From assembly GCA_043228905.1 (NCBI GenBank), contig JBHGNT010000014.1:6882001-6946000 (forward strand): a stretch of 64,000 nt of DNA, written 5' to 3'. Within the stretch, counting starts at the first letter, position 1. Each line of letters starts with the position of its first letter. Of the stretch, positions 13,084 to 54,700 are shown piece by piece. The notes beneath the pieces are model-generated. The model was given only the letters and a program-made list of their open reading frames with translations, did not search any database and had not been told where the DNA came from. The position numbers and the translations under genes were made by a program. This DNA is from Azolla caroliniana (lineage: Eukaryota; Plantae; Polypodiophyta).

Positions 13084-13209
13084 ATTTATGTCGCGAAGTT
13101 TCGCGTGCGTGTGTTACTTGGGTGGGACCACGGGGGTCTTGGACTTGGGAGTACTCAAGGGATAAATATTTATTTATTTATTTATTTTAAATCTTATAAA
13201 TATAAAGCA

Positions 13210-13842
13210 CTCTTTGAACCCACTCTACGAATCCTCTCTACGAATCTTCACTCTATGAATCCTTACTCTACGAATCTTCACTCTACAAATCTTCACTCTA
13301 CGAATCCTCACTGTACGAATCTTCACTCTACGAATCCTCCCTCTACGAATCTTCACTCTACGAACTCTCTCTACGAATCCTCTCTACGAATCCTCTCTAC
13401 GAACCCACTCTACGAATCCTCTCTTCATACACTCTACGAATCTCCACTCTACGAATCCTCACTGTACGAATCTTCACTCTACAAATCCTCCCTCTACGAA
13501 TCTTCACTCTACGAATCTTCACTCTACGAACTCTCTCTATGAATCCTCTCTACAAACCCACTCTACGAATCCTCTCTTCATACACTCTACGAATCTCCAC
13601 TCTACGAATCCTCACTGTACGAATCTTCACTCTACGAGTCTTCACTCTACAAATCTTCACTCTACGAATCTTCACTCTACGAACTCTCTCTATGAACTCT
13701 CTCTACGAATCCTCTCTACGAACCCACTCTACGAATCCTCTCTTCGAACCCACTCTATGTACTCTCTCTACAAACTCTCTCTACGAATCCTCTCTTCGAA
13801 CCCACTCTATGAACTCTCTCTACGAATCCTCTCTATGAACCC
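13210..13842. repeat. 13-15-bp minisatellite (core CTCTACGAATC) in C1 5' LTR
   Basis: Dozens of degenerate CTCTACGAATCTTCA / CTCTACGAATCCT units. Confidence 0.93.
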
Positions 13843-19100: not shown

Positions 19101-21609
19101 GACTCTACGATGAGCAGACCCAACTGGCAAGAGACCGGTTAGCACTCGAGGAACCAGCCGGTTACGGTGAGGATACCGAACCGGCAGAAGAAGAAGTAGA
19201 GGACGCTGAGACCAGAACCGGCCTAGACCCCGAATCGGATTCGGATGAGGAGCAAATGGAGGAGCCGGCTACCGAAGCCCAAAGACGGGAATATCCTCTC
19301 AGAGAGAGAAGGGCCCCCCGGAGATTTCTGGATGCAGAGCATGTTCTACTGACTGATGAGGGGGAGCCGGAAAGCTTCAAAGAAGCGAAGGATGACACCC
19401 ACAGCCGAAAATGGTTAAGTGCCATGCAGGACGAGATGGATTTCCTGCATGAGAACCATACGTACGAATTGGTGGAGTTGCCGAAAGGAAAGCGGGCACT
19501 TCGAAACAAGTGGGTGTACAAGTTGAAACCGGGAGATGCCGGAAACCGCCCGAGATACAAAGCCAGGATCGTGGTGAAGGGGTTCCAGCAGAAGAAGGGC
19601 GTGGACTTCATCGAGATATTTGCCCCGGTAGTAAAGATGACCTCCATCCGGACGGTGCTGAGTATAGCAGCAAGCATGGACCTCGAGGTAGAGCAGCTGG
19701 ACGTGAAGACGACATTCCTTCACGGTGAACTTGAAGAGGAGATCTACATGCAGCAACCGGAATGATTCGTGGAGAAAGGGAAGGAGCACCTGGTATGCCG
19801 GTTGAAGAATAGCCTGTATGGACTGAAGCAGGCTCCCCGACAATGGTACCGGAAGTTCGAGTCCTTCATGACCGATCAAGGGTACCACAAGACACATGCC
19901 GATCACTGCGTGTTTGTGAAGAAGTTCGAAGGAGGCAACTTCTTGATACTCCTTCTGTACGTGGATGACATGTTGATCGTCGGACGTGACCAAGTCAAAA
20001 TACGGATGCTGAAGAAGGCTCTCAACTGGACCTTCTCAATGAAAGACTTGGGTCCGGCAAGACAGATGTTGGGGATGCACATCATCCGAAACCGGTCAAA
20101 GAAGCAATTATGGCTATCACAAGAGAAGTACGTGACAAAGGTGCTTCACCGGTTCAACATGTCAGATGCGAAACCGGTCGGATGGACACTTCCGGCAAAC
20201 TGCAAGCTATCCGGCAAGCAAAGCCCGAAGACCAAAGCAGAGAAGGTGGATATGATGAAGATCCCATATGCCTCTACCGTCGGGAGCTTGATGTACGCAA
20301 TGGTGTGTACCTGACCGGATATAGGATACGCATTCGGAGTGGTGAGCCGGTTTATGAGCAATCCCGGCAAGGAGCACTGGAACGCGGTCAAATGGATACT
20401 CCGGTACTTGAAGGGCACTTCAAATATGTGTCTCTGATTCGGCTCAGGAAAACCTCAACTGGACGGTTTCACCGACTCGGACATGTCGGCTGATGTGGAT
20501 ACCAGCCGACTCGAACATATGCAGGGGTAGCTGTTTCGTGGCAGTCGAGGCTGCAGAAGACGGTTGCATTGTCGACCACAGAGGCGAAGTACATGGCGGC
20601 TGTGGAAGCCGGCAAGGAAATATTATGGATGAAGGACTTCATCGGAGAGCTCGGTATCCGGCAAGAGGAATACCGACTCTATTGCGACAGTCAAAGTGCC
20701 ATCCACCTTGCTAAGAATGTGGCCTACCATTCTCGGACGAAGCATATCCAACGAAGATATCACTGGATCCAGGAAAGAGTAGAGGACCAGGAGTTCGCGC
20801 TGACGAAGATCCACACGGCCGAGAACGGGTTAGATATGCTAACCAAAGTGCTGATACCCGACAAGCTGGATGCATGCCGGAAGAGAATCGGACTGGTAAG
20901 ACACCCCATGCCGGAGTGAAGGGGGAGTTTGTTGGGAGACAGGTCCCTCCGGATGGGAAAGGAGAAGAACAGTGCTGATGAACAAGCTCGGCCGAGGCCG
21001 AAACCGTATGAGGTGGACCCGGCTACGGAGGGCTAGATGATGCAGACCCGGTGAAGACCGGATGAGGAGTACCCAGCTACGGAGGGCCGGATGATGCAGA
21101 CCTGATGAAGACCGGATGAGGAGTACCCGGCTACGGAGAACCGGATGAAGAGACATATTCGTAAATATGTTTTTCTGATAGTCCATCGTGCCTATATTTG
21201 TAAATAGCCGAAAAGTCATATTAGTATAAATATGACTTAGGGCAAACTAATATACTGTTGTTGTCATTTCCTTGTTGGTGCAAGAAGAAGAGAGAGTACG
21301 TAACGTTGTACAGAGAGAGAGAGAGAAAGAGGTCGCTGCCTCTGTTGTAACCGCCGCCTGTGGCGAAGATCGTGAGCACGAGGTCGTTGCCTCTGTGATC
21401 TCACTGTTTTGTACATTATTACATAGTGACAGTTTGCAGCCTGTGGGCTGCCGTGGTTTTTCCCCTAGTTTGGGGTTTTCCACGTAAACCTCCTGTGTAA
21501 TTTTTTTTTTCCTCTTCTTTGTGTCGCGTCTTATTTCCTGTTTTCTGTGTATCATTCTAAGCTTGGTTGTGGCCGAGCGTTGCGCATAAGGAACGATCAG
21601 TTCCCGTCA
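16126..21609 (+). mobile_element. copia A2, full length, TSD GTTCT
   Basis: LTRs 16126-16858 and 20930-21609, PBS TGGTATCAAAGC at 16861-16872, PPT GAAGGGGGAG, GTTCT at 16121-16125 and 21610-21614. Confidence 0.96.
16889..20919 (+). pseudogene. copia A2 gag-pol with a few stops and frameshifts
   Basis: CFYCGKPGHFQKNC, WVVDSGA, ADNGGEY, YVDDML, RTKHI. Confidence 0.93.
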
Positions 21610-35375: not shown

Positions 35376-38249
35376 ACAATAGATAGATTTTTTGTGAGAC
35401 AATAGAATACTCAAGAAGATGTATATTACAAAGGAGATTAATCGACATAATTACAAAGTAGGAGGAGAGTGCTTTATATAGTCACTCTCTCTCTTCATTA
35501 ACTACCGAAGCTCATGGGTCATGGGGAATGTGAAAACTCATTAGTTATGTGTCATAGAATATGATTCTATGACACATAGTTAATGTGTAGATAAGAGTGG
35601 TGACTTTTGACCTTTGAGTGCACACTCTCAAGGGTGTGACTTTTGACCTTCGTGTGCACACTCTCAAGGGTGTGTTCACACACTAGACTAGGTTGAGCTT
35701 GATTCTCAACACGCCCCCTCAAGCTCAATTTTGGTTGGCTACTTCGGTTGATGTCCGCGTCGGCTCGTATCCAGTTCGGACGGTATCCGGTACATCTGGC
35801 TCATATTTGGTTCGGACGGTATCTGGTTTTCGCTTGTACTCCCCTTCAAGCTTGGCAAGTCAAGGAACCTCAACCCAAGGTTTGACAGGAATTGCCGAAG
35901 CTTGTCGGCTCCTAGGGCTTTGGTGAAGATGTCGGTTGTTTGAAGATTTGTAGACATATGTTGAAGGTCGACATCGCCAGCCTGAACATGCTCTCGAATG
36001 AAGTGATAGTGCACTTCGATATGCTTCGTGCGTGCGTGGAACACCGGGTTCCGAGCCAGATAAATACTGCTCATGTTGTGCAGTAAAGGAGAATCGGATC
36101 TTTGATGGGAATGCCCAGATCCTTTAATATCGTCTTGCGGCATACGACTTTACATGCAGCCACCGCCGCACCCTTGTATTGGGCCTCTGTGCTCGAAAGA
36201 GCGACAGTTGGTTGCTTCTTGCTACTCCAAGAGATGGCTCCACTTCTGAGGGAGAAGACAAAACCAGAGGTTGATCGTCGGTCGGCTTTGTAGCCTACCC
36301 AGTCGGCATCTGTGTACCCCTCGAGTTGAATTGGCATGGCCGACTTATAGAGAATGCCATAGTCCATCGTTCCGCTCACGTATCATAGCATTCTCTTAGC
36401 ACAATCCAAATGGATATCTCGTGGCGTTTGCATGAACTGGCTAAGAAGGCCGACCGGATAGCTCAGGTCTGGTCGAGTGATTGTGAAGTAGACAAGACTA
36501 CGGATCAGTTGTCGATACTGAGTCGGCTCACACTCTATGGTGCCAAAATTGGCATCTAGTTTGAGGTTTCAGTCGAGCGGTGTTGCCACAGACTTGCACT
36601 CAGTCATCCCGAACTTGTATAACAAGTTGAGAATGTAGTGCCGTTGGGAGATCATAATTTCGGCTGGAGTCCGAATTACCTCAATGCCAAGGAAGTAGTG
36701 GGGCTCTTTCATTTCCGTCATCTCGAATTTGTTGGAAAGGAGGGATTTGACCTTGTTGATGTCGACTAGATGCTCACCTCCAATGACCAGATCATCCACG
36801 TATAGGATGATGACGATCGGACTTTCGGAATCGCTTCTTACATAGAGAGAATTGTCGGATTTTAACTTTCGGAAGCCGATTCGATGAAGATTTTGTGTTA
36901 TCTTTGAGTGTCAAGCACGTGGTGCTTGCTTAAGGCCGTAGAGAGGCTTCTTGAGTCGGCAGATGGCTTTCGGATGAATGTTGGATTCGAAGCCAGGTGG
37001 TTGTACCATGTACACTCTTCTAATTCTCCTTGAAGAAAACCGTTCTTGACATCCATCTGGTGGAGGTGCCACCCTTTCGCTGCTGCAAGCGCTATCACGG
37101 TTCGCACGGTTGTCATCTTTGCCACCGGGGCAAAGGTCTCTTCATAGTCGACGCCCTATGTTTGTGTGTAGCCCTTTGCTACGAGTCGAGCTTTGTAGCG
37201 GTTGACGGAACCGTTGGCATTATACTTCACTTTGTATATCCATCTGCAGCCAATTGCCTTCTTGTGCGGTGAGTGAGGGACGAGATCCCATGTCTAATTC
37301 TTGTTGAGACTTGCATCTCCTCGTTCATTGCTTCGACCAATCGAGGATCTTTAGCGGCTTCGGCAAAGCTCTCCGGTTCTCGAATTGTTGCCACCTTCAT
37401 CATAAAGGCATAATGGTATGCCATATAATCGTTGTAGCCGAATCGGCTAACTAGATTCTTCTCTTGGGTGGAGTGACAGAGTTTCTCATTTGCCGATGTG
37501 AGTGCTTTCTCAACTCCGGGTGACCTCATAAGAGGCACATCAAAGCCATCAAACTCACTATCGAGTGAATGAGCCGATTCGTTGCCATCGAAGTGATTAT
37601 CTTCATATTCCGGCATTTTGGCCTTCCCTTTGTCCATCTTTGGACTTGGCCGAGATGAGCTTTGGTTGCTCGGAGGCTCTTGTGGTCTGCTCAATCCAGT
37701 TGAGATTGGACTCTCTTCGAGTATTGACCTTAGTTGATCATCATCTTCTGTGTTGTCGAGGTCGTTCGTAGATGGTTCGGGAGGAGTTGGCTCGGGTTTG
37801 TACCATGATTTTGATTCGTCAAAGATTGTTATTCGCTTAGCCGGACAAGGCCTAACACAAGGTGTCACGGAGACACTTCACCAAAGGGGTGATTACGGCA
37901 TAGGATTAAGATTCAACGATTACACCGACTTACGTAGGTTACACGATTAGATTGCTTTGGTTAATTACACGCGTAAGATATAACAGTGATTACAGAACGG
38001 AAATCAAGACAGAAGTATAAACATCATAAGCTCTATTAATTATCCGCTGCGATTACAATGGGGTCCGGGCCTTTAAATAGGTTTCCGGCCCGTAGTACAA
38101 AACGGTGCCTATCGCACCTATTCGGGATCCGTCCGGATCTGGAACGGCATACCGTTTCCAGTCCATCCGTCCACACTATGCTCATTTACAACCATATTTA
38201 ATTAATTCCTTCACTCCGTATTTTGGACTCCTTGCCGGCCGGTAACACA

Positions 38250-38266
38250 TGGCACGCCCGTGGGAC
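38250..38266 (+). promoter_or_regulatory. tRNA-Arg PBS-like motif TGGCACGCCCGTGGGAC, antisense to E coding strand
   Basis: 2 nt from the LTR end. Matches the complement of a plant tRNA-Arg(UCU) 3' end as I recall it, with a 1-nt gap. Confidence 0.7.
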
Positions 38267-38299
38267 AATACCTTGTACGTCGAACCCTGCTCGGCCCCT

Positions 38300-40999
38300 T
38301 CATTGTTCACCCAAATTGTCCAAAATACTTTGTTCAAGAATTTCCACTTGTTCTTCCGGTTGTGGTTCTTGCGGCTGTGCTTGCTGCTGCTGCTGTGGTT
38401 GCGGTTGGGACTGAGGCTGCTCCGGCTGCTCTGCTTGCTGCTGCTGCTCTGTTTGTTCCGCTGACTCCGGTTGCTCCGTTTGTCTCTCTGACTCCGGCAT
38501 CTCCGTTTGACTGCTTCCGGTCCGGTCTCCTTCCAGTAACGGTTCCTCATCACTGAGGTTGACCGTAACCGGTTCTCGTTCTTTCTCTCCCCGGATCCGA
38601 GACCTCTCGTAGCTTTCAAACTGGATCTGCGCCTCCAGCCTGTCGTCGTCCAGCTGAGCTACAAGTTGCCGGACTTGCTCTAGTTGGTCCTCTGCCAAGG
38701 CTTGAAAGTCTTCGGCTAGCTCATCTCTTATGCCGGTGAAGTCTTCGGAATTCAGCATATAGCAATCATCTCCCTCCTTCCGCCGGTTCTCTACGTCGGG
38801 CCGGAGCAATTGGAGTTCCGCCGCGTTCGTGGCCCACTTGGTCCACCATTTGACGGACCCGTTGTCAATCAAGCTCTTGGTCTGGTTCAACCAGGCCCGC
38901 ATTATATCCTGGATGCGACTTGCCCCCATTTGCGCTCTGCTTTCCACCACTTGTCGCTCCTCCTTCAACTGCTTGATGAGATTTGCCGTATCCTCCGCCT
39001 GCTCTCTGTAGCGCGTCAGCTGCCCTTGATATGTCGTTTGCAGCCTCTGCAGTACCTCCGCCGCTCTTTCTTTTTCCGCCTGCTGTTGCCTGAGGAGCTC
39101 TGTCCGAACCTTCTCCGCCTCTTCCAACCGTCTTCTGTTTTCCGCTTGTTCCTTGGCGAATGCGGTTGCGGTCCGATCAACTGCTTGCCGGAGCTCATCC
39201 GTCCGTTCCTTGTGCTCCATTTGCAACCGTTTATACTCCCGGTGCAAGTTCTCAAATTCCTCTGTTTTTTGTTTGAGCTTGTCGTTGATCTGGCGATGGT
39301 TCCGGTCTTCCCGGTCCTTTACCTGCCGGAGTTCCTCTTTCAGGCGCTCTACTTCTGTTTCGGCGTTCCTCCGGAGCCTCTCCTTCTCTTGCAGCATTTT
39401 CTCCTTCTCCTCCTTGAGCCGGTCGTACGCTTGGTGGCCTTTCCGTAAGCTCTCCTCGGCCCGGCGTAGATTCTCAGCAGTCTTTTTGAGTTCTGCCTCC
39501 GCTGCCGTCTTCAATTCTCTTTCGCGGCTCCTCAGCGCTTCTTGGGCAGCTAGCTCATCCTTTAAGTCCGCAAGCTCTTGGGCTTGTGCCGCATTTCTTT
39601 CCGGAACGGTTTCCGTTGCCGGGGTCTGATTGCTATGTACAGGTTGATTTGACACTTTATTCTGTACATTGCCCGGAGTCACCGGTGCTTGGACTTGTGT
39701 TGTCAAAGCGAATTGAGCCATTTCCCTTGTGACCCTGTCCAAGTCTTGTTCAAGGCTCCGGATTCTGGACCGGGCCGTCTCTAGATCTACGGTTGTGACG
39801 AGCAACCGTTCCTGGTGCGCTCTCTCTTCCGCCTCTATATACTCGACCGCTCCGGCGATTTGCTCGCCTACCCACCGTAGCCACATGCTACTGGTGCCTT
39901 GTTGCTGTACTGGTCGGGTCGGCTCATTCCCTGTGGAATTGTCTGGCCTAAGTGCCTGCATATGCCGTTCTGGTTCTACTCCTTGGCCGCCGTGTGCTCT
40001 GGCTGGGCTCGCCGGCTGTTGAGTTCCGGTTCTCGCCGTCTCCGGAGCCGTTGGACTGACTTCTTCTATAGAAGTCGACAAGACCGGTTCCCTACGCACC
40101 GGTTCCGGTTCTTCCCTTGCGGTTTGCTCAGGTTGAGTTGGGGGCGTTTCTGCCTCTCGCGGGTACGACCGCTCCCCTCCTGTCTCGGCGGCCCTACTTC
40201 TTGACCGTCGTTGGAGGTGCTCTTCTGGCTCCTCCGTTTCCTCTTCCTGTGTCACGGCATGTTTCTGTGCCGTCAAGGGTTCCGGTTCCTTCTGTCCCGG
40301 TCTCCGTAAGGTTATCTTGACGGGTCGGACCGGTGACACCTCCTCCGGTTCTGGGACCCGTTTCTTCCCTTTCGTCGCCTTCGACGCCAGCAGCTGCTGT
40401 CGTTTGGACGCCGGCTTCGAGGTGCTTCCTTCCGATACTCTTGGCCGCTTCTTTGGCTGAACGGTCTCGACCGGCGGCACGAGCAATGTTATCCACTGAG
40501 CGACGGCATGCCACAGCTTCCGGCCCTCCTTGCCGTCCTTTCCTCGTACCATGTCGATTGCCACGCACAAACCGTCTGCAATCAACACCGGCCAATCCAC
40601 CTTGGTCCCTTCATAGGTGGCTATGATCATCCCTGCCCGATTTTTTGGCATGACAGGGGGTCGGGGGTACACGTGGCCGTACTCATGGAGCACTCGAGCT
40701 ATCTCCCTGAACAGCGGATCTTCGCCGCCCTGCGTTCGATAGCCTTTGCCGGCAACAGAGTACTCACCGAAATATCGGGTGAGTTGCTCCGAGGTTGGAT
40801 TATCAATCTGAAAAATTCGTCCCTCCGGAAGGCCTGTTAGCGCACGGATCGCTTCCTCGGTGATGACTTCCTTGTCGAGCTCCTTGATGACCTGGTCGGC
40901 TTCTCTGTGCGGTGGTGCTTCCATGATGGCCAAGAACCCCTCCAGTCCGTGTTGCCTGAACCATTTCCTGGCCGCTTCCGACAGCGTTTGTGGTTCCAT
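38300..40999 (-). CDS. extra 3' ORF of element E, 899 aa, long coiled-coil, unknown function
   Basis: Uninterrupted ORF between integrase and 3' LTR; E/R/Q-rich heptad region and Q/P-rich tail. Confidence 0.85.
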   Translation of the reverse strand: MEPQTLSEAARKWFRQHGLEGFLAIMEAPPHREADQVIKELDKEVITEEAIRALTGLPEGRIFQIDNPTSEQLTRYFGEYSVAGKGYRTQGGEDPLFREIARVLHEYGHVYPRPPVMPKNRAGMIIATYEGTKVDWPVLIADGLCVAIDMVRGKDGKEGRKLWHAVAQWITLLVPPVETVQPKKRPRVSEGSTSKPASKRQQLLASKATKGKKRVPEPEEVSPVRPVKITLRRPGQKEPEPLTAQKHAVTQEEETEEPEEHLQRRSRSRAAETGGERSYPREAETPPTQPEQTAREEPEPVRREPVLSTSIEEVSPTAPETARTGTQQPASPARAHGGQGVEPERHMQALRPDNSTGNEPTRPVQQQGTSSMWLRWVGEQIAGAVEYIEAEERAHQERLLVTTVDLETARSRIRSLEQDLDRVTREMAQFALTTQVQAPVTPGNVQNKVSNQPVHSNQTPATETVPERNAAQAQELADLKDELAAQEALRSRERELKTAAEAELKKTAENLRRAEESLRKGHQAYDRLKEEKEKMLQEKERLRRNAETEVERLKEELRQVKDREDRNHRQINDKLKQKTEEFENLHREYKRLQMEHKERTDELRQAVDRTATAFAKEQAENRRRLEEAEKVRTELLRQQQAEKERAAEVLQRLQTTYQGQLTRYREQAEDTANLIKQLKEERQVVESRAQMGASRIQDIMRAWLNQTKSLIDNGSVKWWTKWATNAAELQLLRPDVENRRKEGDDCYMLNSEDFTGIRDELAEDFQALAEDQLEQVRQLVAQLDDDRLEAQIQFESYERSRIRGEKEREPVTVNLSDEEPLLEGDRTGSSQTEMPESERQTEQPESAEQTEQQQQAEQPEQPQSQPQPQQQQQAQPQEPQPEEQVEILEQSILDNLGEQ

Positions 41000-41325
41000 G
41001 TCTGCTTCGAGGTCGAGGGAAGATGGCGAGGTAGAGTGGTGATGAGAGTGAGGACGAGAGAGAGAGCGTTCTGAACGTGGGGGTTCTCTGCGTGCAGGTT
41101 CGCGTTTGCTCAGCTTCCACTATCTTGGTGCTTCTGTGCTTCTTGGCTCGCGAAATGAAAAGGTCTCCATGCGTTCTGCTTCTTCTTTGTGCGTTTTGGC
41201 GCCTTTTTCGAGCATGCACACGTCGTGTACCAATTTAGTATTAAGTAGTGTGGCGTCTCTTAAATGCCCACTACGTACCTTTTCGCTCCTTGCTTTCACA
41301 CCCGTTCATACCTCGATTTTTAATG

Positions 41326-41333
41326 TTTTTTTT

Positions 41334-41366
<33 letters not shown>
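41326..41366. repeat. poly(T) tract (poly(A) on element strand) in pol/extra-ORF spacer
   Basis: A 32-T run plus an adjacent shorter run. Confidence 0.9.
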
Positions 41367-41691
41367 CAATTTTTAATGACGGTGGGTGACCTTACACATC
41401 CGTAGGTCCCTTCGGACCCTTACCGTTTTCCTTACGGGTTGCCGTGTCTTCCTTCGTCTCTGCTACGGGTTCCCCGTCGTCTTTTTCTTCCGGATCGATC
41501 CGTACCGATCCCGGACAGGTTCCCGGTATAGTGCCGGTTTGCTGCATAAACGGGTTCTTTGGCATCGGTCCTTTATAGGGCTTTAGTCGAAATCCGTTCA
41601 CCCACTTGCCTAGTACTTCACCGGCAAGTGTCCCTATCTGATAGGACCCGTTGTATTCCCTTGTCAGCCAATACGGGCCTGTCCATCTGAA

Positions 41692-44628
41692 TCAGAGTTT
41701 ACCCGGCATCTTGCCCATCCTCGTTTGGAATACTAGCACCGGCTTTCCAATTTCGAACATCTTCTCATTACCTTTCCGGTGACGGTCAACGAACGCTTTC
41801 CGTCGTCGCTGCTCCAGTTCCATGTGTAGGATGCTGGCCAGCCGTTGCTCCTCCAATTCGCATAGTGCTGCTAGCCGCATTTCCTCCGACTTCTTTTCAT
41901 TCAGCCGTTCCCGTAGTTGGATCCGTAAGCTTGGTACCTGAAACTCGACTGGCATGACCGCTTCTAAGCCGAATGCTAACCGGAACGGCGTTGTCCGGAT
42001 ACTTGTTTTGTATGCCGTTCGGTACGCCCATCGCGCGCTATGGAGCTTTGTATCCCAGTCCGTCCGGTTTTCGTTGACGATTTTGCGGAGAATGTTCTGC
42101 AGCGTTTTGTTGGTGGACTCTGCTAACCCGTTCCCCTGTGGGTAGTACGGTGTGCTTCGTTTATGGACCACGGCATAGAACGTTGTTAAGCTTTCCACTA
42201 CCTGGCCGAGGAAGTGGCCTCCTTGGTCGCTGATTAATTCAATCGGACATCCATATCGGCACCAAATGTTTTCGTACAGGAATTTTGCTGTGGATGACGC
42301 GGTGTTGTCTCTCAGGGCCTTAGCTTCCACCCATTTAGTGCAATAATCCGTTGCCACGATGACATAACGATTACCCGTTCTCATTGCCGGTGGCTTGAAC
42401 GGTCCGACAAAATCCAACCCCCACTTCTGGAATGGCTCTAGTGGAAGTACCGGTTGGTGTGGCATCCGTGCTTGCTCCGTAGGCTGGCCCATTCGTTGGC
42501 ATAGGTCGCATTCCTTAGCATACTTGACGGCGTCTTTTAACGTCGTGGGCCACCACAAGCCGCTCTGCCATACTTTCCTTGCCGTCGCTTCCCCGGCATA
42601 GTGTCCTCCGGCAACCCCACAGTGTGCTTCCCGTAAGATTACTTCTTTCTCGTCACTACGGACTGCCCGTCTCCATATTCCATCTGCTCCCTTGTGGTAG
42701 AGAGTGTCCCGTAATAGACAGAAATTGCGGCTCTGCACTGCCAGTCGTTTCCTCTCGTCCCGGTTCATTTCCTCCGGTGGCAGGCCCGTGCTTAGAAACT
42801 GGTGCATGTTTGTCAGCCACCTATCTTGTGATGCCACCGTGCCGTCCGCTGCCGTTTCCGGGGTGATACGGAATAACTCTGCGTCCGGGAATTCATCCGC
42901 TACTCCGTCGCCTGGTTCTCCGGACTCTAATCGGCTTAGATAGTCTGCTACGGCATGCTGGATACCGGGCCGGTGGAAAATCTCGAATTCGAACTCCTGC
43001 AACAGCAAGGTCCAACGGGCCAATTTACCGGTCAGGGACGCCTTGGACACTAAGTACAGGAGCGCCGAGTGGTCCACATGAAAGGAGAACTTCCTTCCCA
43101 ATAGGTAATGCCGAAACTTTGTTACACTGTAGATCATGCCCAGGGCCTCCCGTTCCGTCGTTGAATAGTTCTTCTCCGCTTGGGACAGCTTCCGGCTGGC
43201 GTAATATACCGGCCGGTACCATTTGGGCTCCGTAAGTTGCATTAAGGCGCTGCCGATAGCGATGTCGGAAGCGTCAACGAACACATGAAATTCCTTGCTC
43301 CAATCCGGAGGTTGCACGACGGGTGCTTGCGACAAAAGTACCTTCAGGGCATTGTATGCCTTATCCTCCGTCTCCGTCCATTGGAACGGTGTCCGATGTA
43401 CCGCGGTGTGTAATGGTGTCGCCAAGTCCGCCAAGTGACGGAGCATCCGGCTGTGCCACCGGATTTGTCCTAAGAATCGGCTTAGTGCTTTGGCTGTTTT
43501 CGGTGCCGGTGCCCCTAGTATAGCGTTTACTTTATCCGGGTCGACCGCAATGCCCTCCTTACTTACAATGTGTCCCAACAATATTCCACTTGAAACCCCA
43601 AAGATGCATTTTGCTGGGTTTAAGCTTAGCCGATATAACCTACACTTTTCAAGGCATAACCGTAGGTGCTGCAAATGGTCTTTTCCCCGGCTATAGACTC
43701 CAAAATCATCCAGGAAAACTTGCATGAAGGCAGGAATGTATTCGCCGAAGATCTCCATGATGATTCGCTGGAACGTTGCTGGTGCCGTTTTTAGGCCGAA
43801 CATCATGACTTCGGCCACAAACACCCCCCATTCGGTGACGAACGCTGTCTTCTCCTGGTCGTCCGGGTGCATCCGGATTTGATTGTACCCGCTGAACCCG
43901 TCTAGAAAGCTATAAACTTCATGACCGGCGACGGCATCCAGTACTCCGTCCGTGAACGGAAGAGGGAATGCATCCGTAATTGTGGCGGCATTTAGTTTCC
44001 TGTAATCTACACACACACGGATTTTACCGTTCTTCTTGGGGACGACGACGATGGGGCTTAGCCACGTCGCTTTCTTTACCGGCCGGATGAAGCCCACTCT
44101 TAGGAGTTTGTCGATTTCCTCCTTCACTTTGGCGGGGTAGTTGGGGTTCATTCGGTAACGTCGTTGCGCCACTGGTTTCGCGTCCTTGCCTAAGTGGATC
44201 TGATGCTGATATAATTGAGGGTCCAGCCCTCGCATGTCCTCGTATGACCAGGCGAATATGTCGCGAAACTCCGTGAGAAGTTTGATCATCGCCGCTTTAT
44301 CTTCCGGCTTCATTTCTTTGGCGATGTGAACCGGCTTTGATTCGTCCTTGCTTCCTAGGTTCACTTCGTCGAGCTGGGATGTTTTTACCCGTTGGGAAAC
44401 GACCATTTCCCGTTCCAATGCTTCCTGTGCTTGCCGTAATTCCCGAATTGCATCTTTGTCTGGTTCGGCTTCGGTGTCGTCCCGCTGCGGCAAGTATGGC
44501 GCTACGGCTTCAGCTACGTCAATCTCGAAGAGTGGTACGATCTTCGGGTGTTCCTCCAAGTACTGGGCTTCTTCGTCGTCTGCCAATCCTTCAAGCATGT
44601 TCACACATTCCGCATACAGCGGTGTGCA
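41692..44628 (-). CDS. gypsy pol (RT-RNase H-integrase), N-truncated, nonsense codon in integrase C-terminus
   Basis: VCVDYRKLN, FLDDF, FVDASD, HCGVAGGH..CDLC, ISDQG. The TGA at 41692-41694 is followed in frame by FRWTGPYW. Confidence 0.92.
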   Translation of the reverse strand, partial: CTPLYAECVNMLEGLADDEEAQYLEEHPKIVPLFEIDVAEAVAPYLPQRDDTEAEPDKDAIRELRQAQEALEREMVVSQRVKTSQLDEVNLGSKDESKPVHIAKEMKPEDKAAMIKLLTEFRDIFAWSYEDMRGLDPQLYQHQIHLGKDAKPVAQRRYRMNPNYPAKVKEEIDKLLRVGFIRPVKKATWLSPIVVVPKKNGKIRVCVDYRKLNAATITDAFPLPFTDGVLDAVAGHEVYSFLDGFSGYNQIRMHPDDQEKTAFVTEWGVFVAEVMMFGLKTAPATFQRIIMEIFGEYIPAFMQVFLDDFGVYSRGKDHLQHLRLCLEKCRLYRLSLNPAKCIFGVSSGILLGHIVSKEGIAVDPDKVNAILGAPAPKTAKALSRFLGQIRWHSRMLRHLADLATPLHTAVHRTPFQWTETEDKAYNALKVLLSQAPVVQPPDWSKEFHVFVDASDIAIGSALMQLTEPKWYRPVYYASRKLSQAEKNYSTTEREALGMIYSVTKFRHYLLGRKFSFHVDHSALLYLVSKASLTGKLARWTLLLQEFEFEIFHRPGIQHAVADYLSRLESGEPGDGVADEFPDAELFRITPETAADGTVASQDRWLTNMHQFLSTGLPPEEMNRDERKRLAVQSRNFCLLRDTLYHKGADGIWRRAVRSDEKEVILREAHCGVAGGHYAGEATARKVWQSGLWWPTTLKDAVKYAKECDLCQRMGQPTEQARMPHQPVLPLEPFQKWGLDFVGPFKPPAMRTGNRYVIVATDYCTKWVEAKALRDNTASSTAKFLYENIWCRYGCPIELISDQGGHFLGQVVESLTTFYAVVHKRSTPYYPQGNGLAESTNKTLQNILRKIVNENRTDWDTKLHSARWAYRTAYKTSIRTTPFRLAFGLEAVMPVEFQVPSLRIQLRERLNEKKSEEMRLAALCELEEQRLASILHMELEQRRRKAFVDRHRKGNEKMFEIGKPVLVFQTRMGKMPGKL

Positions 44629-47600
44629 TGTTATTCGCTTAGCCGGACAAGGCCTAACACAAGGTGTCACGGAGACACTTCACCAAAGGGGTGATTACGG
44701 CATAGGATTAAGATTCAACGATTACACCGACTTACGTAGGTTACACGATTAGATTGCTTTGGTTAATTACACGCGTAAGATATAACAGTGATTACAGAAC
44801 GGAAATCAAGACAGAAGTATAAACATCATAAGCTCTATTAATTATCCGCTGCGATTACAATGGGGTCCGGGCCTTTAAATAGGTTTCCGGCCCGTAGTAC
44901 AAAACGGTGCCTATCGCACCTATTCGGGATCCGTCCGGATCTGGAACGGCATACCGTTTCCAGTCCGTCCGTCCACACTATGCTCATTTACAACCATATT
45001 TAATTAATTCCTTCACTCCGTATTTTGGACTCCTTGCCGGCCGGTAACAAAGATGACATCCCGACTTACACGAGTCTTCCGAGTAGAGGGGTTGAAGCAC
45101 TTGTACCCGTACCCCATGAGGATGCACTTCTCTGATTTTGGGTCAAACTTCTGCCTCTTCTCATCGGGAATGTGCAAGTATGCAATGCAGCCGAATATCC
45201 TTGCATGGGATAGATCCGGCTTCTTCCCATAGCATTTCTCGTGCGGGGTGACCTTGTGCACTCCAGATGTTGTACACCGGTTCATGAGGTAGACGGCAAT
45301 ATTTACAGCTTCTACCCAATATGACTTGGGCATATACTTCTCATTTAGCATGGCCCTTGACACTTCAAGGATGTGCCGATTCTTGTGTGTGGCTACACCG
45401 TTCTGTTGTGGTGTGTGTCGGCCAGTGAATTCTCTCCAAATTCCTTCTTGTCGAAGGTATGCCGTGAACACATCGGAGAAGTATTCCTTTCCTCCGTCTA
45501 ACCGAAGACATCATACATGACGCCCAGTTGTCTTTTCGACTTCGCTTTTGAATTTTTGGAAGTGTGTAAACACTTCTCTCTTCATCCTCATGGGAAAGAT
45601 CCATGTGTATCTAGAGAAGTCATCGATGAAGGTAACATAGTACCGACATCCTCCGAACGTAGCCGTTTGTGCCGGTCCCCACACATCCGAGTGGACCACG
45701 TTCAATAGGCCTTTGCTCACGTTCCTCTCCTTCAGGAACAGGTGTCGATGTTGCTTGCCGAATTGGCATGCTTCACATACTCCTTCAATCTCTTTCTCTT
45801 TGAAGGTCGGGAGCCCAATGACAACTCCTTTCGATTGCATCGCCTTGAGTTTGTTGAGATTGATATGGCCGATGCTTTTATGCCATAGCTCCATGTCGAT
45901 GTTGTGTTTGAGGCCCTTTGCAAACAACACTGATTTTACCTCGTTTTCTTCGAGGATAAACATTTGGCCTTCCCCTCGACCACGAGCAATTAGTCGGCCT
46001 TCCTTCTCGATGAAGAAACCTCCTTGGTTGAATCGAACTTGCATCCCTTGCTCCACAATTTGGCCGACTAAGACCAAATTCTTCGTTATGGTGGGTACAT
46101 GTAAGACATTTTTTATGTAAGTTTGTTCACCTTCTCTCCCGAATGGGACATTGCCAACATGCCGAATCAGATGAGTAGTGTCATCTCCAGTCTCGACATA
46201 ACCAGGTCGATCCGGCTCTCGAAGGTCTTTGAACCATTCTTGATGGGACGTCATATGGTTCGTAGCACTGGAGTCGACGAACCATACATCTTCTGGATTG
46301 GAGGCATTAGTCGAAGTAGAGGCCGACATAGGATTTGCTCTATGTCTCATTACAAACATTCCGCCATGATCTTCATAGTCGGAGTTGGTGGCGTAATTGG
46401 TGAGTTGTCGACTTGTGGAAGCCGACTCGCGCTTCTTCTTTCGGCACTCGTCTTCATGGTGGCCGATTTTTCCGCAATAACCGCATTCGATCAAGTTTTG
46501 TCGACTCAAACCAAAATGTAAGCTCCCCCTTCTTCCGAAGGTTCCTCGATGGCTTCCATCTTGTTGCCGAATTTGGGAGTTGTTGTCGTAAGTCGGACCT
46601 CGTCCGCCGCCTCATCCTTGGCCGAATCGGCCTCTTGCTCGGCCGCGTCCTCTTCCTCCATTCGAATGCGTGTAGAGCATGTGGCCTTCCAAGGCGTTGC
46701 TCCTTGTTCGAACATGATTCTCTTCGACCAATAACATAGATTGAAGATCAAAGAAAGAGGGAGGATTCTCTCTTGCTAGGACGGCAGTTCTCATCGAGCC
46801 GAACCGTGGTGCAAGGCCGTCGAGGCATATTTGCACCATCTGATCATCATCCACATTGACACTTATTGAGCCGAACGAGTCACAAAGCTCCTTGATCCTC
46901 AAGGTGTAGCTTGTGATGGATATGTCCCGTTGTTGGATGTTGTTCAACCCTTGGCGGAGTTGAAGCTTCCTCGCGGTCGTGTTGGCGGAGAAAACCTTTC
47001 ATAGATTTTCCCACGCTTCCTTTGGCGTCTCGGCTTCTCGAATGTAGACGACCATGTGGTCGTGAACACATGTTGCCAAGCAATACATTACTCGACTCGC
47101 CACTTGCTCCTATGTTGAGTAGTCGGCGTCTTCCGGGTCGGGTCGGTTTTCTTGTGCTCCCTTGATGGAACCCCAATAGCCTTGGCCAACGAGGTATTGG
47201 TGCATCTTGTACTCCCAAGATGCGAAGTTGTTTCAGTCCAACTTCTCGCTAGGGAGAGAGCTCCCCATTTGAGTATTCATGGTGTTCGATATAGATTTCT
47301 TCCTTCTTCATCTCTCTTGAATACGAGCTATGTAATCGCACTACAATAGCGATGAGCCGGTTCTTCTTGAATGTTGGTGTAGAGCTCAACACACGCGGAT
47401 GGGCTAGATGGAGCTACCAAACCGCTCTGATACCATGTAAATGAAAATAATGGCGTGCGGAAGCAATATAGGAAAACCGAACAACAGAAAACGCAGGTTT
47501 AATGGAAAGCTTAGGTCTTCACAGTACGCACGGGGGAAGACAGAGAGAGAGTAACACAAGAACTTAAATTCAAAAAATAATACTCAATCTGTACATAGGA

Positions 47601-49629
47601 TGTGCTCAGTGAGCACTTTTATACAAGCCCTGACAGTGGGCTGACACAAGTACTGATAGTACTTGACTACTCATAAATGAGCCTTGACACTTACTCCCAA
47701 AACTATTCCTTACGAGGAATACCTTTCTAACGGCCTTTCGGTCTACGCATCGATACGGCCTTTCTACGCACCGGTCTGTGTACCGGTTTTATGCACGCAG
47801 TCTACGCACTGGTTACGCATCGTATTACGCACAAATGTTGAGCTTGTCTCTCAACACTCCCCCTCAAGCTCAACTTGAGGTTCCGCCTGCTCTGTCGGAC
47901 CTACGCTCCGGCTTCTCCTTGCTCCATGCCTCGCTCGCGCTCCTCGGCCTGTTCGACTCCGCGCGCTTTGGCCCTTCTGATCGGCTTGTCTGCTCCCATG
48001 GCCCTTCACAGGTCCCTTGCTGTCGCGGTGTTGGCGCTTCTCCTGCTGCCTTCTTTTCCGCTTCGCCCTCAGTTGATTCAGTGTATCTAAATCAAACATC
48101 TGAACCGACTCGGCTACCTCCGATCGGTTTTCGCTCTCGTCCGAGCTCTCATCCGAGTTGGCTGTCTCCAACTCGTCTCCGGTCTTCTCACCCTTGACGG
48201 CGTCATCTCCCCCATGCCTGGTTGGCTTTGGCTCTTTCTTTCGGCTACTCACCTTGTGTCCGCTTTCAGACTTTTCCACGGATCCGCTCTCGGCTTCTTC
48301 AGCCGATTTGAGGTCTTTTCCGCTCCTTTCCTGCTCCTTTTCGTGGTCATCTAGAACGTTTCTCCCCCTCAAATTCGGCATGTCGAAGTGACGCAATCCA
48401 AGCGCACTCGAAAATTGTTGCAACTTGTCCAGACCAAGAGGCTTGGTGAAGATGTCGGCGGTCTGCCGATCTGTCGGAACATATTGAAGTTCGATTTCAA
48501 CAGAAAGAACACGCTCACGGACAAAATGGTAGTGCACCTCAATGTGCTTGGTCCGTGCGTGGAAGATGGGGTTCTTCGCGAGTTGGATGCTGCTGAGGTT
48601 GTCGCAGTAGATCGTCGTCGGATTGGACACCTCCTCCTGCAGATCCTTAAGTAGCCACTTCACCCAAATGGCTTCGCATGTTGCGACAGCCGCTCCTCTA
48701 TACTCAGCTTCGGTGCTCGACAGTGCAATTGTCGACTGCTTCTTGCTACTCCACGCTATCGCGACACTCCCAAGAGAGAACGCATGTCCGAACGTGGATC
48801 GGTGATCGGCGACATTGCCGACCCAGTCGGCATCAGTGTAGCCAACCAACTGCGGGGCTGTATCGGTCCGATATAGCAGTCCGCGGTCCTTAGTGCCGCT
48901 TACGTACCGCTGTCGTGAAGAAAACCGCCCACAAGAGGAATCGGAGGAACAAGGCGTGGGAAACGGCTCTACACACACACGCGCGCCAAGAAGTACCTAA
49001 GGACGAAGTAGGTACATACGAGGATCCTAGGTGGGTAGATTCGGTTGGTATGCAGTTAATGCCAAACGGCCTCTTGACGGGCTATAAAAGGAAGAGGAAG
49101 AATAGAAGTGGGGATCTCCCGCGGAGAGGACGAAGTGCTGCCGAACCGATTTCGGAGCTTCTCTCTCACTCCTGCTCTCTCTGTCTTCTGCTCCATCGCG
49201 TACCTGTGCAGGTTTCGAGGAGGCTTGCGCTGTTCCGTGGAACGCCCCGAGTGCGTCCTGCAGCACCTCCGACCTGTTTTCCCTTTCTGTGCGTCGCGAC
49301 ATACAGGGGTCGGCAGCTGTTCGCCGCCCTGTTCGTTTTCGTTAGTATCTATTTTGTGCCCCACCGTGGGTTGTAATACTTTAGTCTGTTATTTTCTTGC
49401 GTTCATAAGCACATATCTCTCGTTGTTGCGTCCATCTGCGTCGGCGTCTATTTGTGATCTCTGTTTGTTGGGCCGTGTCCCTGTGCAATCGTCGGTTCTG
49501 CGCAATCGGATCTTCGGTTCTGTGTAATCGGGTCTCTCTCTCTTACTCCTCTCTCTCTTGCTCTTCGGTTCGAGACCCCCGTGGTCCCTCCTCCTTTCTA
49601 CACGCAAGGGCGTAGCAACCCCGACATCT

Positions 49630-49647
49630 TGGTGAACCCGACGTGAA
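49630..49647 (+). promoter_or_regulatory. PBS for tRNA-Trp
   Basis: TGGTGAACCCGACGTGAA, 3 nt after the LTR. Confidence 0.82.
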
Positions 49648-49669
49648 AGAGGCGGCAGAAGAGTAGGAA

Positions 49670-51796
49670 ATGAAGGGGGCGGATCTTGCAGAGGCCATGG
49701 CTTCGGCCGTGGATCGGATAGTAAGCGCGCGCGAGGGCACCGGCGCCCTCGATAGAGCTATTGAGGCGGTCGTCGGAACGATCGGTCGATTCACTGGAAA
49801 AGATGCCACGAAGTACCTGGCGTCCTACGGTGCGGAAATGTTAATGCGGGACATTCCGGAAGACAGGCGTCTTGCCGGTTTTCCCCGAGTGGCGATGCCG
49901 AGCATCCACGCGGAGGTGCTCGAGGTGCGGGCGGAGAGCCGTACCTGGGAGGAGTTCGAAGGTCGGCTCCTGGAAAAATACGGACTGGACGACGCGCTCC
50001 GGCTTTCGAAGCGAAGCTTCATGGAGTGGGTGGAGTCTCCCGGGAAAGGAAGGAATGCGTCGGCACTCCTCCGGGAGTTCGAGGAGAACTTCGCGCGCCT
50101 TTCGGCGCTTGACAGGATGGTCCTGGATACAAGCCGGGTCCTGCTGTTCGTCAAATCGGTTGACGAGAGGGATCGGAGTCACGTGGGCGCCCTGCTAGAA
50201 ACCGAAGACGGGCTGACAGCCGACTGGGCGGCGGTCAAGAGAGCCTGCGGCCGTTTCGACAAACGGCGAGAATGGGAGGATGACAGAGCAGCCGGGTCGG
50301 GCTCAGTCGCGGCGAGGAAACTCGAGCCGGCGCAGCCGGTGCGAAGGGAAGAGACTCGGGAATGGCTGGAATCCGGTTCAGCTCCGACCGGCGTGATCAG
50401 AGGCTCGACTGGAGGAGCTGCGTTGGAGGAACTGACGAGGGCGATAAAAGACCTCCAAATCGCACAAGCCCGCAGAGAAGGCGGAGAACCTGCTCGTGAC
50501 CGACGGCCGGCGGCAGGGAACAGGTGCATGTGGTGCGACGGGGTCGGCCACATCCGAAAAGACTGCGGCGATTTCGCAGAGGCGCTGAGGAACCGGGTGG
50601 TGTACCTATGGGAAGGCCGGGTTCACGCCAACGACACGAGAAGGGCCCTAAACCGAAACGACGGGCGAGGCGGAATGAAGAGGTTGATGGAAGAGGCGGC
50701 GGCCCGACATGCGGAAACCGTCCACTACTCGGCGTCGGCCGGTATTCGAGTCGGGGGCGGCGAGGCCCGAAAGGAAAGCAAAGCCGGATTCTGGCCGACG
50801 ATGCTGGAAGGCCTTGCCGGTGCAGGGCTTAAAGGGGAGGAATCGGACCGTGCGGAGAAACGGGTACGGGAGATGACCGGGTGGAGCGACCCGGTCGAGG
50901 AAAAGACGGGCTTCGTGGAAGCCGCTTGCCGGAACTACGAGGCTCTGGTAGAAGAGAAGCGGGTGGGGAAACCCGGGACGACCGGGCCCTCACAACGATA
51001 CGAGACCCGGTCCGGGCCACGACGGGACGAAGCCGGCGGGGCCGGTACGCAAGATAAACCCCAGAAGGGCGGGTACCGTCTGGGGACGGAGATAGAAAGA
51101 ACCACGGACTTACGAAAGGTCCTGGAGGAACGGATCCTCGACAGCAAGGTGGAGCTGTCGCTACGGGAGGTGCTGGGAATCGCCAAGAAGGAGTTCCACG
51201 ACTCCATCGTGGACTTGGTGAAACGGAAGAGGCTGTCAACGGAGACAGAACCGGAAAGACCGGTGGAAGTGCGGACGACGCACCTAGACAACATGGCGCT
51301 GGGAGACGAGTGGGCGGAAAGCCACTATTCGAGACCGCACTGGGCCCGAGCGACCACGGAAACCCCGGTGAAGATCGGCGATGTCCAGGAACCGGTGATA
51401 GCTTTGGTGGACCACGGATCGGAGATCAATTTGATGTCCATGGACTTCTATAAGAAGGGCAAATGGCCGATCAACACCAAGCACGGGTGGAAAATAAGGG
51501 CAGCAACGCGCGCCACCGAGGAACTGCACGGGGCCTGTCCGAATGTGCGAGTCAAGATCGGCGACGTCGAGATTGACCAGCACTTCTTCGTGCAGGAGAC
51601 GTCTTCGCATCCGGTCATACTGGGAGAGCCGTACATCACGGCGGCGCGGATGGAGACCAAGGTGTTGGACAATGGTTCGGCCTACGCGAGGGTCAAAAGC
51701 CAAGACGGGCGCCATTCGGTCCAGTTTCTGACGGTACGGCCGAACCACGAACGTAACCGCGACTCCCTCGGTTCCGATAACCGAGAGGATTTTTAG
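49670..51796 (+). CDS. gag: gag-protease polyprotein
   Basis: 708 aa. CMWCDGVGHIRKDC zinc knuckle; aspartic protease ALVDHGSEINLM...ILGEP. Confidence 0.92.
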   Translation: MKGADLAEAMASAVDRIVSAREGTGALDRAIEAVVGTIGRFTGKDATKYLASYGAEMLMRDIPEDRRLAGFPRVAMPSIHAEVLEVRAESRTWEEFEGRLLEKYGLDDALRLSKRSFMEWVESPGKGRNASALLREFEENFARLSALDRMVLDTSRVLLFVKSVDERDRSHVGALLETEDGLTADWAAVKRACGRFDKRREWEDDRAAGSGSVAARKLEPAQPVRREETREWLESGSAPTGVIRGSTGGAALEELTRAIKDLQIAQARREGGEPARDRRPAAGNRCMWCDGVGHIRKDCGDFAEALRNRVVYLWEGRVHANDTRRALNRNDGRGGMKRLMEEAAARHAETVHYSASAGIRVGGGEARKESKAGFWPTMLEGLAGAGLKGEESDRAEKRVREMTGWSDPVEEKTGFVEAACRNYEALVEEKRVGKPGTTGPSQRYETRSGPRRDEAGGAGTQDKPQKGGYRLGTEIERTTDLRKVLEERILDSKVELSLREVLGIAKKEFHDSIVDLVKRKRLSTETEPERPVEVRTTHLDNMALGDEWAESHYSRPHWARATTETPVKIGDVQEPVIALVDHGSEINLMSMDFYKKGKWPINTKHGWKIRAATRATEELHGACPNVRVKIGDVEIDQHFFVQETSSHPVILGEPYITAARMETKVLDNGSAYARVKSQDGRHSVQFLTVRPNHERNRDSLGSDNREDF

Positions 51797-54700
51797 AGAG
51801 GGCTGCCAAGGCGTGGGGCCGCGACAGTCCGGACACCCCGGGAAAACCCCACACCTGTATGATAAAACCGAAGAAACCTTGTACCATAGGTAGGGAATTT
51901 TTGTTCTCCGACAGCGGAGCGTGTGCGATGGTCGGCATCGCCGGCCGAGAGAAAACAAAGACGGAGGCGAGACTTCGAGCGTGCGGAGTTCTCGGCCCGG
52001 ACGAGGAAATCAACAGAGCCGTGGAGGCGGTCTCATTCGACGACACCTTGGGAATGCTGGGAAAGGTAGTCGAAGAAGGCCTTAACGAAGACCGGACGAT
52101 ACCGGTGTGTTCCGAGGAGATGTACGAAGTCATCGCGGACTTCGGTCGAGGGCTCGAGTCAGTTCGGACGGCCCACGTAAACACCAAGTACAAGACTGTG
52201 GACCGGAAGGTAAGGCCAGTAGCGGCACCCTTACCGGAGGACAGCGCGTCGAGAATCAAAGGGGTTGCATCGGACCCTAGTCTACGAGATCCGGCCCGCA
52301 TAGGGCACACCTTTACTGACGAGACGCTCCGAGAGCTCAAAATCGGTGGGGGCGGGTTCCTACTGCCGGCGGAGGAAGACCGGTTTCGGAGAATGCTCGG
52401 AAGGCACGGGAAAGCCTTCGCATTCTCGCCGGAGGAAATCGGGTGCGTTGACCCGACGATCGTGGAGCCGATGGTGATATTCACGGTACCGCATGTACCA
52501 TGGAATCTCAAGCCAATCCCGGTTCCGAGAGCTCACATCCCGAAGTTGATGAAGCTGCTGAGGCAGAAAATTGATATGGGAATTCTCGAGCCGTCGAGCG
52601 CCCCATATTCGAATCGATGGTTTACCGTACCGAAGAAAAACGGTTCGCTGCGCTTCATCCAGGACCTGCAGCCGGTCAATCGAGTGACCATTCGGAACGC
52701 AGGGATCGGACCGACCATAGACGAGTTCGCGGAGGCCTTCGCCGGAAGGTCAATTTACTCGGTCGGGGATCTATACTCAGGGTACGACCAGTTCCAGCTA
52801 GCCGTGGAGAGCAGAGACATTACGACGATGCGAACTCCCCTCGGCCTAGTTCGGATGTGTACACTGCCGCAAGGAGGGACCAACTCGGTGGCCCACATGG
52901 TGAATGCGATGAACAAGGTTCTGAGGGACTGTATCCCGGACATCACCATGCCGTTTCTGGACGACATCCCGATCAAGGGATGCCCGGTGGAAGAAAAGGA
53001 CGAGACGATCGGGCCGGACGGATGCCGGCGATTCGTGGCGACGCACATCGACGACTGCGAGAAGGTGCTGCAAAGGCTAGAGGATGCGAGACTCACCTTC
53101 TCCGGGGAGAAGTCGGCCTTCGGGCAGTCAGAAATCATGGTGGTCGGACACCTGTGCAGACCATATGGCCGGAAACCGTCTCCGGCAAAGGTAGAAGCCA
53201 TCTCCGCGATGAAGCCCGACTGCAGCTCGGTCACGGAAGTACGGAGATTCCTGGGGGCATGCGCGTTCTACCACATGTGGATCCCGCATTACGCACACGT
53301 CGCGGAGCCACTGTACGGGTTGCTGAAAAAGGGGCGAAGGTTCGAATGGCAAGACGAGCACGCGGAATCGGTCCGGAAGCTGAAAGAGGCCCTTGCAGCG
53401 GCACCGGCACTCCGGAAGGCGGTATACGGGAAGGGTACCCCGGTATTCATAACGGTGGATACCAGTCCGACCGGGATCGGATGGGTCGTGAACCAGGAAG
53501 ACGAGGACGGCAATCGGTTTCCGATCCGATTCGGCGCGAAGGTCCTCAGTGAACGGCAGCGAGGATACGCCCAGGTTAAACGCGAACTCTGGGGTATTGT
53601 TTCGGCGGTTAAGGCCGACAAAGACTACCTGATAACGACAGAAGTGATCATCGAGACGGATTGCCTGCCGATTCTCGGAATGGTTTCCGGATGCGCGACT
53701 CCGGACCTGGCGATGCTCAGGTGGATAGCGTACATCAAGTCCCTGGACCCGGAAATACGACACCTTTCCGGGAAAGACAACGCCATGGCCGACATGCTTT
53801 CGAGGGCGAGGTTCGACGACGAGGGCGGCATGGTTTCGGAAGACGAAGAAGTCGGCGTGGATTTCTTCGAGGCGGCATACATAACGACCGACGGGATGAG
53901 CACTCCGGCGCTTAACGAGTTCGACGCGAGCAAGTACGACGGGGAGTGGCTGCAGATCGGCGGGTTTTTGAAGACAATGACGCCCGATGCGTCATGGACG
54001 AAGGACGAGGCCAACCGGATCCGGAAGAAAGCATATCGATTCTTTCTCCGAGATGGGCATCTATGGAAGCACCCGAAGAAGAGGGACGGCGTCCCGCTCC
54101 GGGTGGTGGCGATGAAGGAAGTACAGGAGGAGCTACTGGCGGCCTACCACGACAGCCCTTGGGCTGGACACCGTGGAACGTGGGCGACGTTTGAGAAGCT
54201 GAAGGGGAAGTACTGGTGGCCGGGATTGTACCGGGACGTGCATCGGTTCGTGTCAACTTGCGAGAGTTGTCAGATGCACTCGATAGTCCGACACCGGGAC
54301 GGGCTTCACCCTACGTACCCTCCGACTATCCACTTCAAATGGATGGTAGATCTGGTGACGATGCCGATGGGGGTAGGACAGATGCGGTATCTGGTCCTAG
54401 CGCGGGAAGACCTGACGAACCAGGTGGAAGGCCGAGCCCTTCAGAACAAGACGACCGCGGCCGTGTGTCGGTTCCTAGTCGAGGACGTGATATGCCGGTA
54501 CGGGTGCGTCGGGAAGATCGTGGCTGACCGAGGGGAGTTGGACGCCGAAGAGGCCGCGGCGCTGTTCGACCGGCTTGGAGTCAAGCTCTCGCTCACCACT
54601 GCGTACAATCCGGAGGCGAATGGAAAGGTGGAGCGCGGACACGGACCGATCGTCAAGGCGTTGATTCGGGCATGCGGAGGCCGAGTCGGTAACTGGCCGC

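Follow-up and report, generated by a model that had tools for sequence, protein, structure and literature searches.

According to PMC5371799 and PMC7197481, retroviruses and LTR retrotransposons have in common that their second DNA strand is primed from a polypurine tract. In the yeast elements Ty1 and Ty3, the binding of the tRNA is bipartite and includes the T-arm, with the two segments of Ty1 being split by a small internal loop; these bipartite sites, however, prime the first strand only, while the second strand starts from a polypurine tract (PMC5371799). The self-priming of Tf1 and Tcn1, and the use of half-tRNAs as primers, indicate that the choice of primer can change by lineage, but these cases also concern the first strand only, and none of them, as described in the cited passages, replaces the polypurine tract (PMC5371799, PMC6317226). 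Among the Ty3/gypsy elements of plants, Athila combines the domain order reverse transcriptase (RT), RNase H and integrase with the lack of both a chromodomain and an extra RNase H, a 5-bp target duplication and an extra open reading frame (ORF) between integrase and the 3' LTR; it is further characterised by a tRNA-Asp, Asn or Ala primer, by LTRs longer than 1.2 kb and by a tract whose core is TTGGGG (PMC6317226, PMC2844528). What defines the Tat clade (TatIII, Ogre, Retand) is an additional RNase H of archaeal type; primer sites for tRNA-Arg predominate in TatIII and Ogre, and extra ORFs occur near the 3' end (PMC6317226). Here, we describe a Ty3/gypsy group that is devoid of a polypurine tract and has a match to the end of a tRNA beside each LTR, which we refer to as "site A" (beside the 3' LTR) and "site B" (beside the 5' LTR); as judged from sequence comparison, host tRNAs may prime both DNA strands of this group, a reading to which we assign a probability of roughly 0.55.

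The element was found in a 64,000-nt stretch of the Azolla caroliniana genome (the window), which consists, from position 1 to 64000, almost wholly of nested LTR elements, among them several copies of copia whose primer sites and tracts are ordinary. A second gypsy element at 48911-56072 has identical 716-bp LTRs, an ordinary primer site, a purine tract and a 4-bp target duplication, CCGC, which fits the NCGN target preference that is given for Phygy (PMC6317226). Tandem arrays with periods of 54 bp and 13 bp are located at 172-927 and 13208-13871, and the 54-bp unit recurs, inverted, within copia LTRs at about 16198-16398 and 21002-21148.

The element under study is a young Ty3/gypsy LTR retrotransposon, located inside a copia whose empty sites are visible as joints in public contigs. 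Its coding strand is the minus strand, on which the 3' LTR occupies positions 37827..38247 and the 5' LTR positions 44629..45049; the two 421-bp LTRs (TGTT...AACA on both strands) differ at one of 421 positions, and they are flanked by the 5-bp target-site duplication AAGAT at 37822-37826 and 45050-45054. Pol (41692..44628, minus strand) encodes RT, RNase H and integrase, in that order, and is cut by the LTR on its 5' side; near its integrase end, an in-frame stop occurs at 41692-41694, beyond which the frame stays open, and this codon differs in most of the matching contigs. The extra ORF (38300..41119, minus strand; 939 codons from stop to stop) ends 12 nt before site A; a Pfam search with it returned no match, and a weak lead (score 0.84) points to clusters of plant-transposon and ATHILA ORFs. 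A run of about 40 T at 41326-41367, i.e. poly(A) on the coding strand, is situated between pol and the extra ORF.

Gag, protease and the primer site at the other LTR are missing from the window copy, where pol ends exactly at 44628/44629 and the LTR end is fused straight to it. In other copies (contigs of runs X4, X8, X2, X6 and X14) pol continues past this joint, and site B is found beside the LTR; a protein that is 89% identical to the window pol also extends beyond the joint position, into a region that we take to be protease-like. Because the other copies and this protein run on at this point, gag, protease and the first primer site must have been deleted from the window copy, and its pol-LTR joint is bridged by no contig among the contigs listed. 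The window copy is likely a deletion derivative, whose joint, located at the terminal CA of the LTR, would have been made by integrase and followed by LTR-LTR recombination, deletion circles with integrase-made joints of this kind having been described (PMC7197481); a nested insertion with LTR-LTR recombination would be equally able to yield the joint. Self-priming at the pol-LTR edge was also considered and dropped, since the edge is a deletion joint.

Regarding its classification, the element lacks a chromodomain after integrase, both in the end of pol and in 41404-41691 (E 0.01), and is thus not a chromovirus. All the elements of the Athila layout that are listed above are shared by the window element, which differs from Athila in its Arg-type sites, its 421-bp LTRs, the absence of a tract and the presence of a second tRNA site; as the likeness is confined to the layout, and the primer, LTR-length and tract features do not agree, we have not assigned the element to Athila. 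The type of primer site and the extra ORF near the 3' end are reminiscent of the Tat clade, but the added archaeal-type RNase H that defines it was not found in the window element. In a quick RT tree of 76 rows, built without lineage-labelled references and after four of 79 proteins were dropped for short coverage, the element and an Adiantum protein share a clade of 15 rows (SH-aLRT 98), from which the matches from seed plants are separate.

The sequence beside the 3' LTR is where the element departs from these systems. On the plus strand, the AACA end of the LTR (38244-38247) is followed by a 2-nt spacer (38248..38249), by TGGCACGCCC (38250-38259) and GTGGGAC (38260-38266), by a 13-nt insert (38267..38279) and by TCGAACCC (38280..38287). 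The proximal part of site A (38250..38266, plus strand) is the complement of the 3' end of tRNA-Arg(UCU), with 10 nt, one skipped tRNA base and 7 nt, while the distal part (38280..38287, plus strand) is the complement of the T-loop and T-stem of the tRNA; site A is thereby located on the strand that would be the first-strand cDNA. A preliminary description of the locus had read this motif as the 3' end of tRNA-Arg(UCU), including CCA, placed where a purine tract would be expected. The first part of this reading stands in a modified form: the motif does correspond to the end of a real tRNA-Arg(UCU) gene, CCA included, minus one base and plus the 13 inserted nucleotides, the matching gene being that of a phage, called tRNA-Arg(TCT) by ARAGORN and retrieved by a pattern that was built from the motif; what this gene adds is that a sequence of this kind exists as a genuine tRNA-Arg 3' end, and the tRNA of the host may differ from it. 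ARAGORN called no tRNA in the 64-kb window itself, and Rfam gave no match across 37800-38400. The second part is borne out by the composition of the 15 coding-strand nucleotides that adjoin the 3' LTR, which contain eight purines and no run of four Gs, compared with 11-12 purines and a run of four or more Gs in all four control elements of the window: the polypurine tract is absent beside the 3' LTR of this element.

Against the phage tRNA-Arg, site A pairs over 10 bp, followed by one bulged tRNA base, 7 bp, the looped-out insert, and 8-11 bp with the T-loop and T-stem. The co-fold of tRNA-Arg with the site A of the window has an energy of -47.9 kcal/mol with RNA parameters, against -26.0 kcal/mol (sd 2.9, lowest -34.2) for 200 shuffles. 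With the sites of three relatives, the 3' end of the phage tRNA-Arg(TCT) co-folds into a three-way junction, from which the insert protrudes as a hairpin; unlike these, the co-fold of the window copy does not show the insert hairpin.

One scan of metagenome contigs has revealed the pattern of site A at 22 distinct loci. That the tRNA-matching parts do not vary from locus to locus follows from the search pattern itself, whereas the context that directly precedes the motif, AAC(A/C) and 2 nt, lies outside that pattern and occurs in 22 of 22; with this context recurring at every one of the 22 loci, the motif is not a chance occurrence. The segments upstream of the motif, from these loci and the window, fall into about ten LTR groups, a count in which 3 of 23 segments are too short and short segments may be over-split. 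Also independent of the search pattern are contigs that match the window up to position 38287 and then diverge, of which there are 55, 44 and 13 in three of four runs; beyond 38287, their loose ends start with ACA (two runs) or ACG (one run), prolonging the match to the tRNA. Viral contigs contained no relative of pol and no site A, and prokaryote genomes contained no site A. The 3' part of the extra ORF follows the motif, on the opposite strand, in six of the 22 loci, with 24-47% identity, and the motif is joined to the end of the extra ORF in contigs of runs X8 and X4. These results bear on the alternative, foreseen in the preliminary description, that an ordinary element has had its interior inverted in the window copy alone: this copy is indeed rearranged at its other LTR, but the shared orientation of motif and extra ORF in six diverged loci and in contigs of two other runs, together with the lack of any strand-change joint among the 15 joints listed (141 more exist), largely excludes a one-off inversion. 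The sequence comparisons instead indicate that the arrangement around site A is a real feature of a whole lineage, and not the peculiarity of one copy.

The insert that splits site A is conserved in length and in structure: it is 13 nt long in 24 of 26 copies and 14 nt long in the other two, when 5-25 nt were permitted, and it can form a hairpin of 3-4 bp with a 3-nt loop (3 bp only in the window copy), which covaries between families. When one copy per variant is considered (14 of the 26 copies), 89% of the cells of the hairpin are paired and three of the four pairs are changed on both sides; the pairing score and the covariation score are attained by none of 500 shuffles, and the count of two-sided pairs is attained by 91 of 500. 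Three of four unpaired cells, with the window copy among them, are A-C on the DNA strand and G-U on the RNA strand, which would be a slightly better fit for a role of this hairpin as RNA. There is a second explanation, according to which the RNA of the element itself primes the second strand: the tRNA-like stretch that ends in CCA would survive RNase H, be cut 2 nt before the LTR, and thus act as an unusual substitute for the tract. No second cellular primer would be needed and the canonical logic would be kept (PMC5371799); apart from the G-U cells, it is in favour of this explanation that in several copies the motif on the coding strand can adopt a T-arm-like stem that encloses a hairpin. 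This RNA fold is inconstant, however, as 8 of the 14 variants fold otherwise, including the window copy; its outer stem is shortened in several families, the T-stem that an RNA mimic would form being cut to 3 bp; RNA within an RNA/DNA hybrid is paired and not folded; and the fact that the match stops at the end of the tRNA T-arm is poorly accounted for. We consider priming by the element's own RNA unlikely, yet deserving of attention.

A second match to a tRNA end, site B, is located beside the other LTR, on the strand opposite to site A, in 10 of the 22 loci and, for the family of the window element, in three of four runs. The contigs with site B were assembled from short reads of repeats, and collapsed copies may be among them. 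In the window element's family, GTGGTCGCCA is found 6 nt from the LTR in three of four runs, which come from three studies and contribute one contig each; the contig from run X15 has a depth of 11.4 of about 13, and among the rows listed for run X2 there is none with the family site B. Read on the coding strand, this site B is a primer-site-like 10-mer after the 5' LTR, and the tRNA that it matches may be Arg or another. A plant tRNA-Arg(UCG) has such an end. An end of the GTGGTCGCCA type is present in 44 of the 70 tRNAs that were called in 65 phage loci, 29 of these 44 being Arg and the rest Asp, Trp and others; in a study of HERVs, the same start is labelled Arg or Trp (PMC4724089). The preliminary description had predicted that relatives would share the anatomy of the window element, and they do so in the orientation of the motif, in the tRNA-end match that follows the other LTR on the coding strand and in the absence of a tract. 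LTR, site B, gag, pol and site A occur together on no single contig examined.

The 10 loci with site B all belong to one related, non-coding family group; in L001, L002, L007, L008, L014, L016, L020 and L022, this family has about 2-3.6 kb between the sites and LTRs of 330-380 bp. Here, GGGCGTGCCA (one change allowed) is followed by TG and then by the start of the LTR, where 0.06 exact 10-mers would be expected by chance; the flank of L008 places the LTR start at TGTT, which gives site B a spacer of 2 nt. Sites A and B flank one interior in eight contigs. The family is likely a non-autonomous partner; sometimes its copies are in tandem or, as in L002, adjoin one that has the extra ORF.

Sites A and B are complementary over 10 nt in the non-coding family, which is compatible with a third explanation, namely that site A binds tRNAs or their fragments for other ends, such as the bridging of the genome ends, strand transfer, packaging or silencing, while the second strand is started by an unrecognised signal. 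A precedent is found in Ty3, where the tRNA is bound by segments at either end of the genome, some 4800 nt from each other (PMC5371799). On the coding RNA, however, site A is identical and not complementary to the tRNA, so that it cannot act like the 3' segment of Ty3; the CCA end keeps its 2-nt distance from the LTR at all 22 loci, which is a priming geometry; and in the window element's family, GTGGTCGCCA is not complementary to site A, so the two sites cannot pair together. A role of site A other than in priming thus seems to us very unlikely.

The strand of the packaged RNA is of importance for the reading of both sites. As had been proposed from the sequence of the window, both ORFs and the LTR signals lie on the minus strand: pol and the 939-codon ORF are joined there by a TATA-like box, CCTATTTAAAGG, which occurs once per LTR (44872..44883 and 38070-38081, minus strand), and by TTGTAA. 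Among the data sets listed as containing the element there was none of RNA, which is no evidence on its expression. Of 19 LTR segments, 13 carry a TATA pattern on the coding strand and two carry it on the other strand, both of these two having a coding-strand match as well; the pattern was chosen to admit TATTTAAA, and its matches come mostly from one family group. The canonical TATATAAA is present at a like position in four LTR segments, and the part of the LTR downstream of the TATA box is more pyrimidine-rich in four of four.

These signals have to be weighed against a fourth explanation, in which it is RNA of the non-coding strand that is packaged, so that site A would be an ordinary primer site of the first strand, split as in Ty1, and the second strand would start from a purine-rich run or from site B. 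Site A does have the 2-nt spacing of a textbook primer site and exceeds site B in length and strength, and the primer site of Ty1 is bipartite with a small internal loop (PMC5371799). Moreover, both families have, on the non-coding strand, a purine-rich run just upstream of site B and 15-20 nt from the adjoining LTR: that of the non-coding family is AAGGGGGGTAGG (L002, 3121-3147), and that of the window element's family is AGAAAGCAGGAA, found in the loose ends at window position 44629; in a described Athila-like element, 24 nt separate the core of the tract from the LTR (PMC2844528). The orientation of the TATA box and the pyrimidine-rich downstream part favour the coding strand, however, and it is a copy of a tRNA end, and not purines, that adjoins that LTR; antisense RNA would have to be packaged in trans; and, with site B as the primer, both strands would still be tRNA-primed. 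We regard replication from antisense RNA as quite unlikely. One further argument against it, that the conserved missing base excludes a first-strand site, as the copying of the tRNA would restore the base, was rejected because of the counterexample of Ty3, whose primer site is not perpetuated from the tRNA (PMC5371799).

Dual priming by tRNAs is the likely explanation, because there is no tract and because matches to tRNA ends are located beside each LTR, on opposite strands. It is further supported by the priming geometry that is found in all the loci, by the two different tRNA ends in the window element's family, and by an insert that is free in sequence and yet paired, located where it would loop out. 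What is observed is that there are two sites, how they are oriented and spaced, that the tract is missing and that the hairpin covaries; from this, we infer the following priming mechanism. RNA would be transcribed from the coding strand, and a tRNA would prime the first strand at the short site B, of 10-11 nt, after the 5' LTR; after strand transfer and the removal of the RNA by RNase H, site A would be exposed on the first-strand DNA, where tRNA-Arg(UCU) could anneal over 10, 7 and 8-11 bp, with one bulged tRNA base and the looped-out DNA hairpin. The CCA end of tRNA-Arg would then prime the second strand 2 nt before the LTR, in the same geometry as at an ordinary primer site. A tRNA on DNA is a substrate of RNase H, which counts against a tRNA primer; we speculate that the bulge and the junction may shield the primer from the enzyme. 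We keep both the antisense RNA and the element's own RNA as alternatives because of the G-U cells, this RNase H issue and the purine-rich run near site B. With odds that we place slightly above even, a widespread Ty3/gypsy lineage of spore plants would have dropped the tract, with host tRNAs priming both strands, the second by means of an RNase H-resistant three-way junction of tRNA and DNA.

The arrangement is a real, lineage-wide variant of the replication signals of LTR elements, and it is apparently undescribed. Keyword and motif searches of the open literature returned no description of an arrangement that lacks the tract and is mirrored in its tRNA sites, and, among the matches listed in the motif search, no title was that of a paper on plant retrotransposons; subscription papers, e.g. 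the original descriptions of Ogre, of Tat and of fern genomes, may hold one.

The known variation in the priming of LTR elements affects the first strand; the absence of a tract from a lineage with many copies and recent integrations would imply that the priming step of the second strand is also replaceable. If dual priming is true, the presence of a tRNA site at each end would make the element, in principle, copyable from RNA of either strand. Annotation tools that are based on the primer site and the tract may mis-orient or mis-score such elements, and with a lineage that has no tract, the way in which RT and RNase H select and spare a primer can be tested directly.
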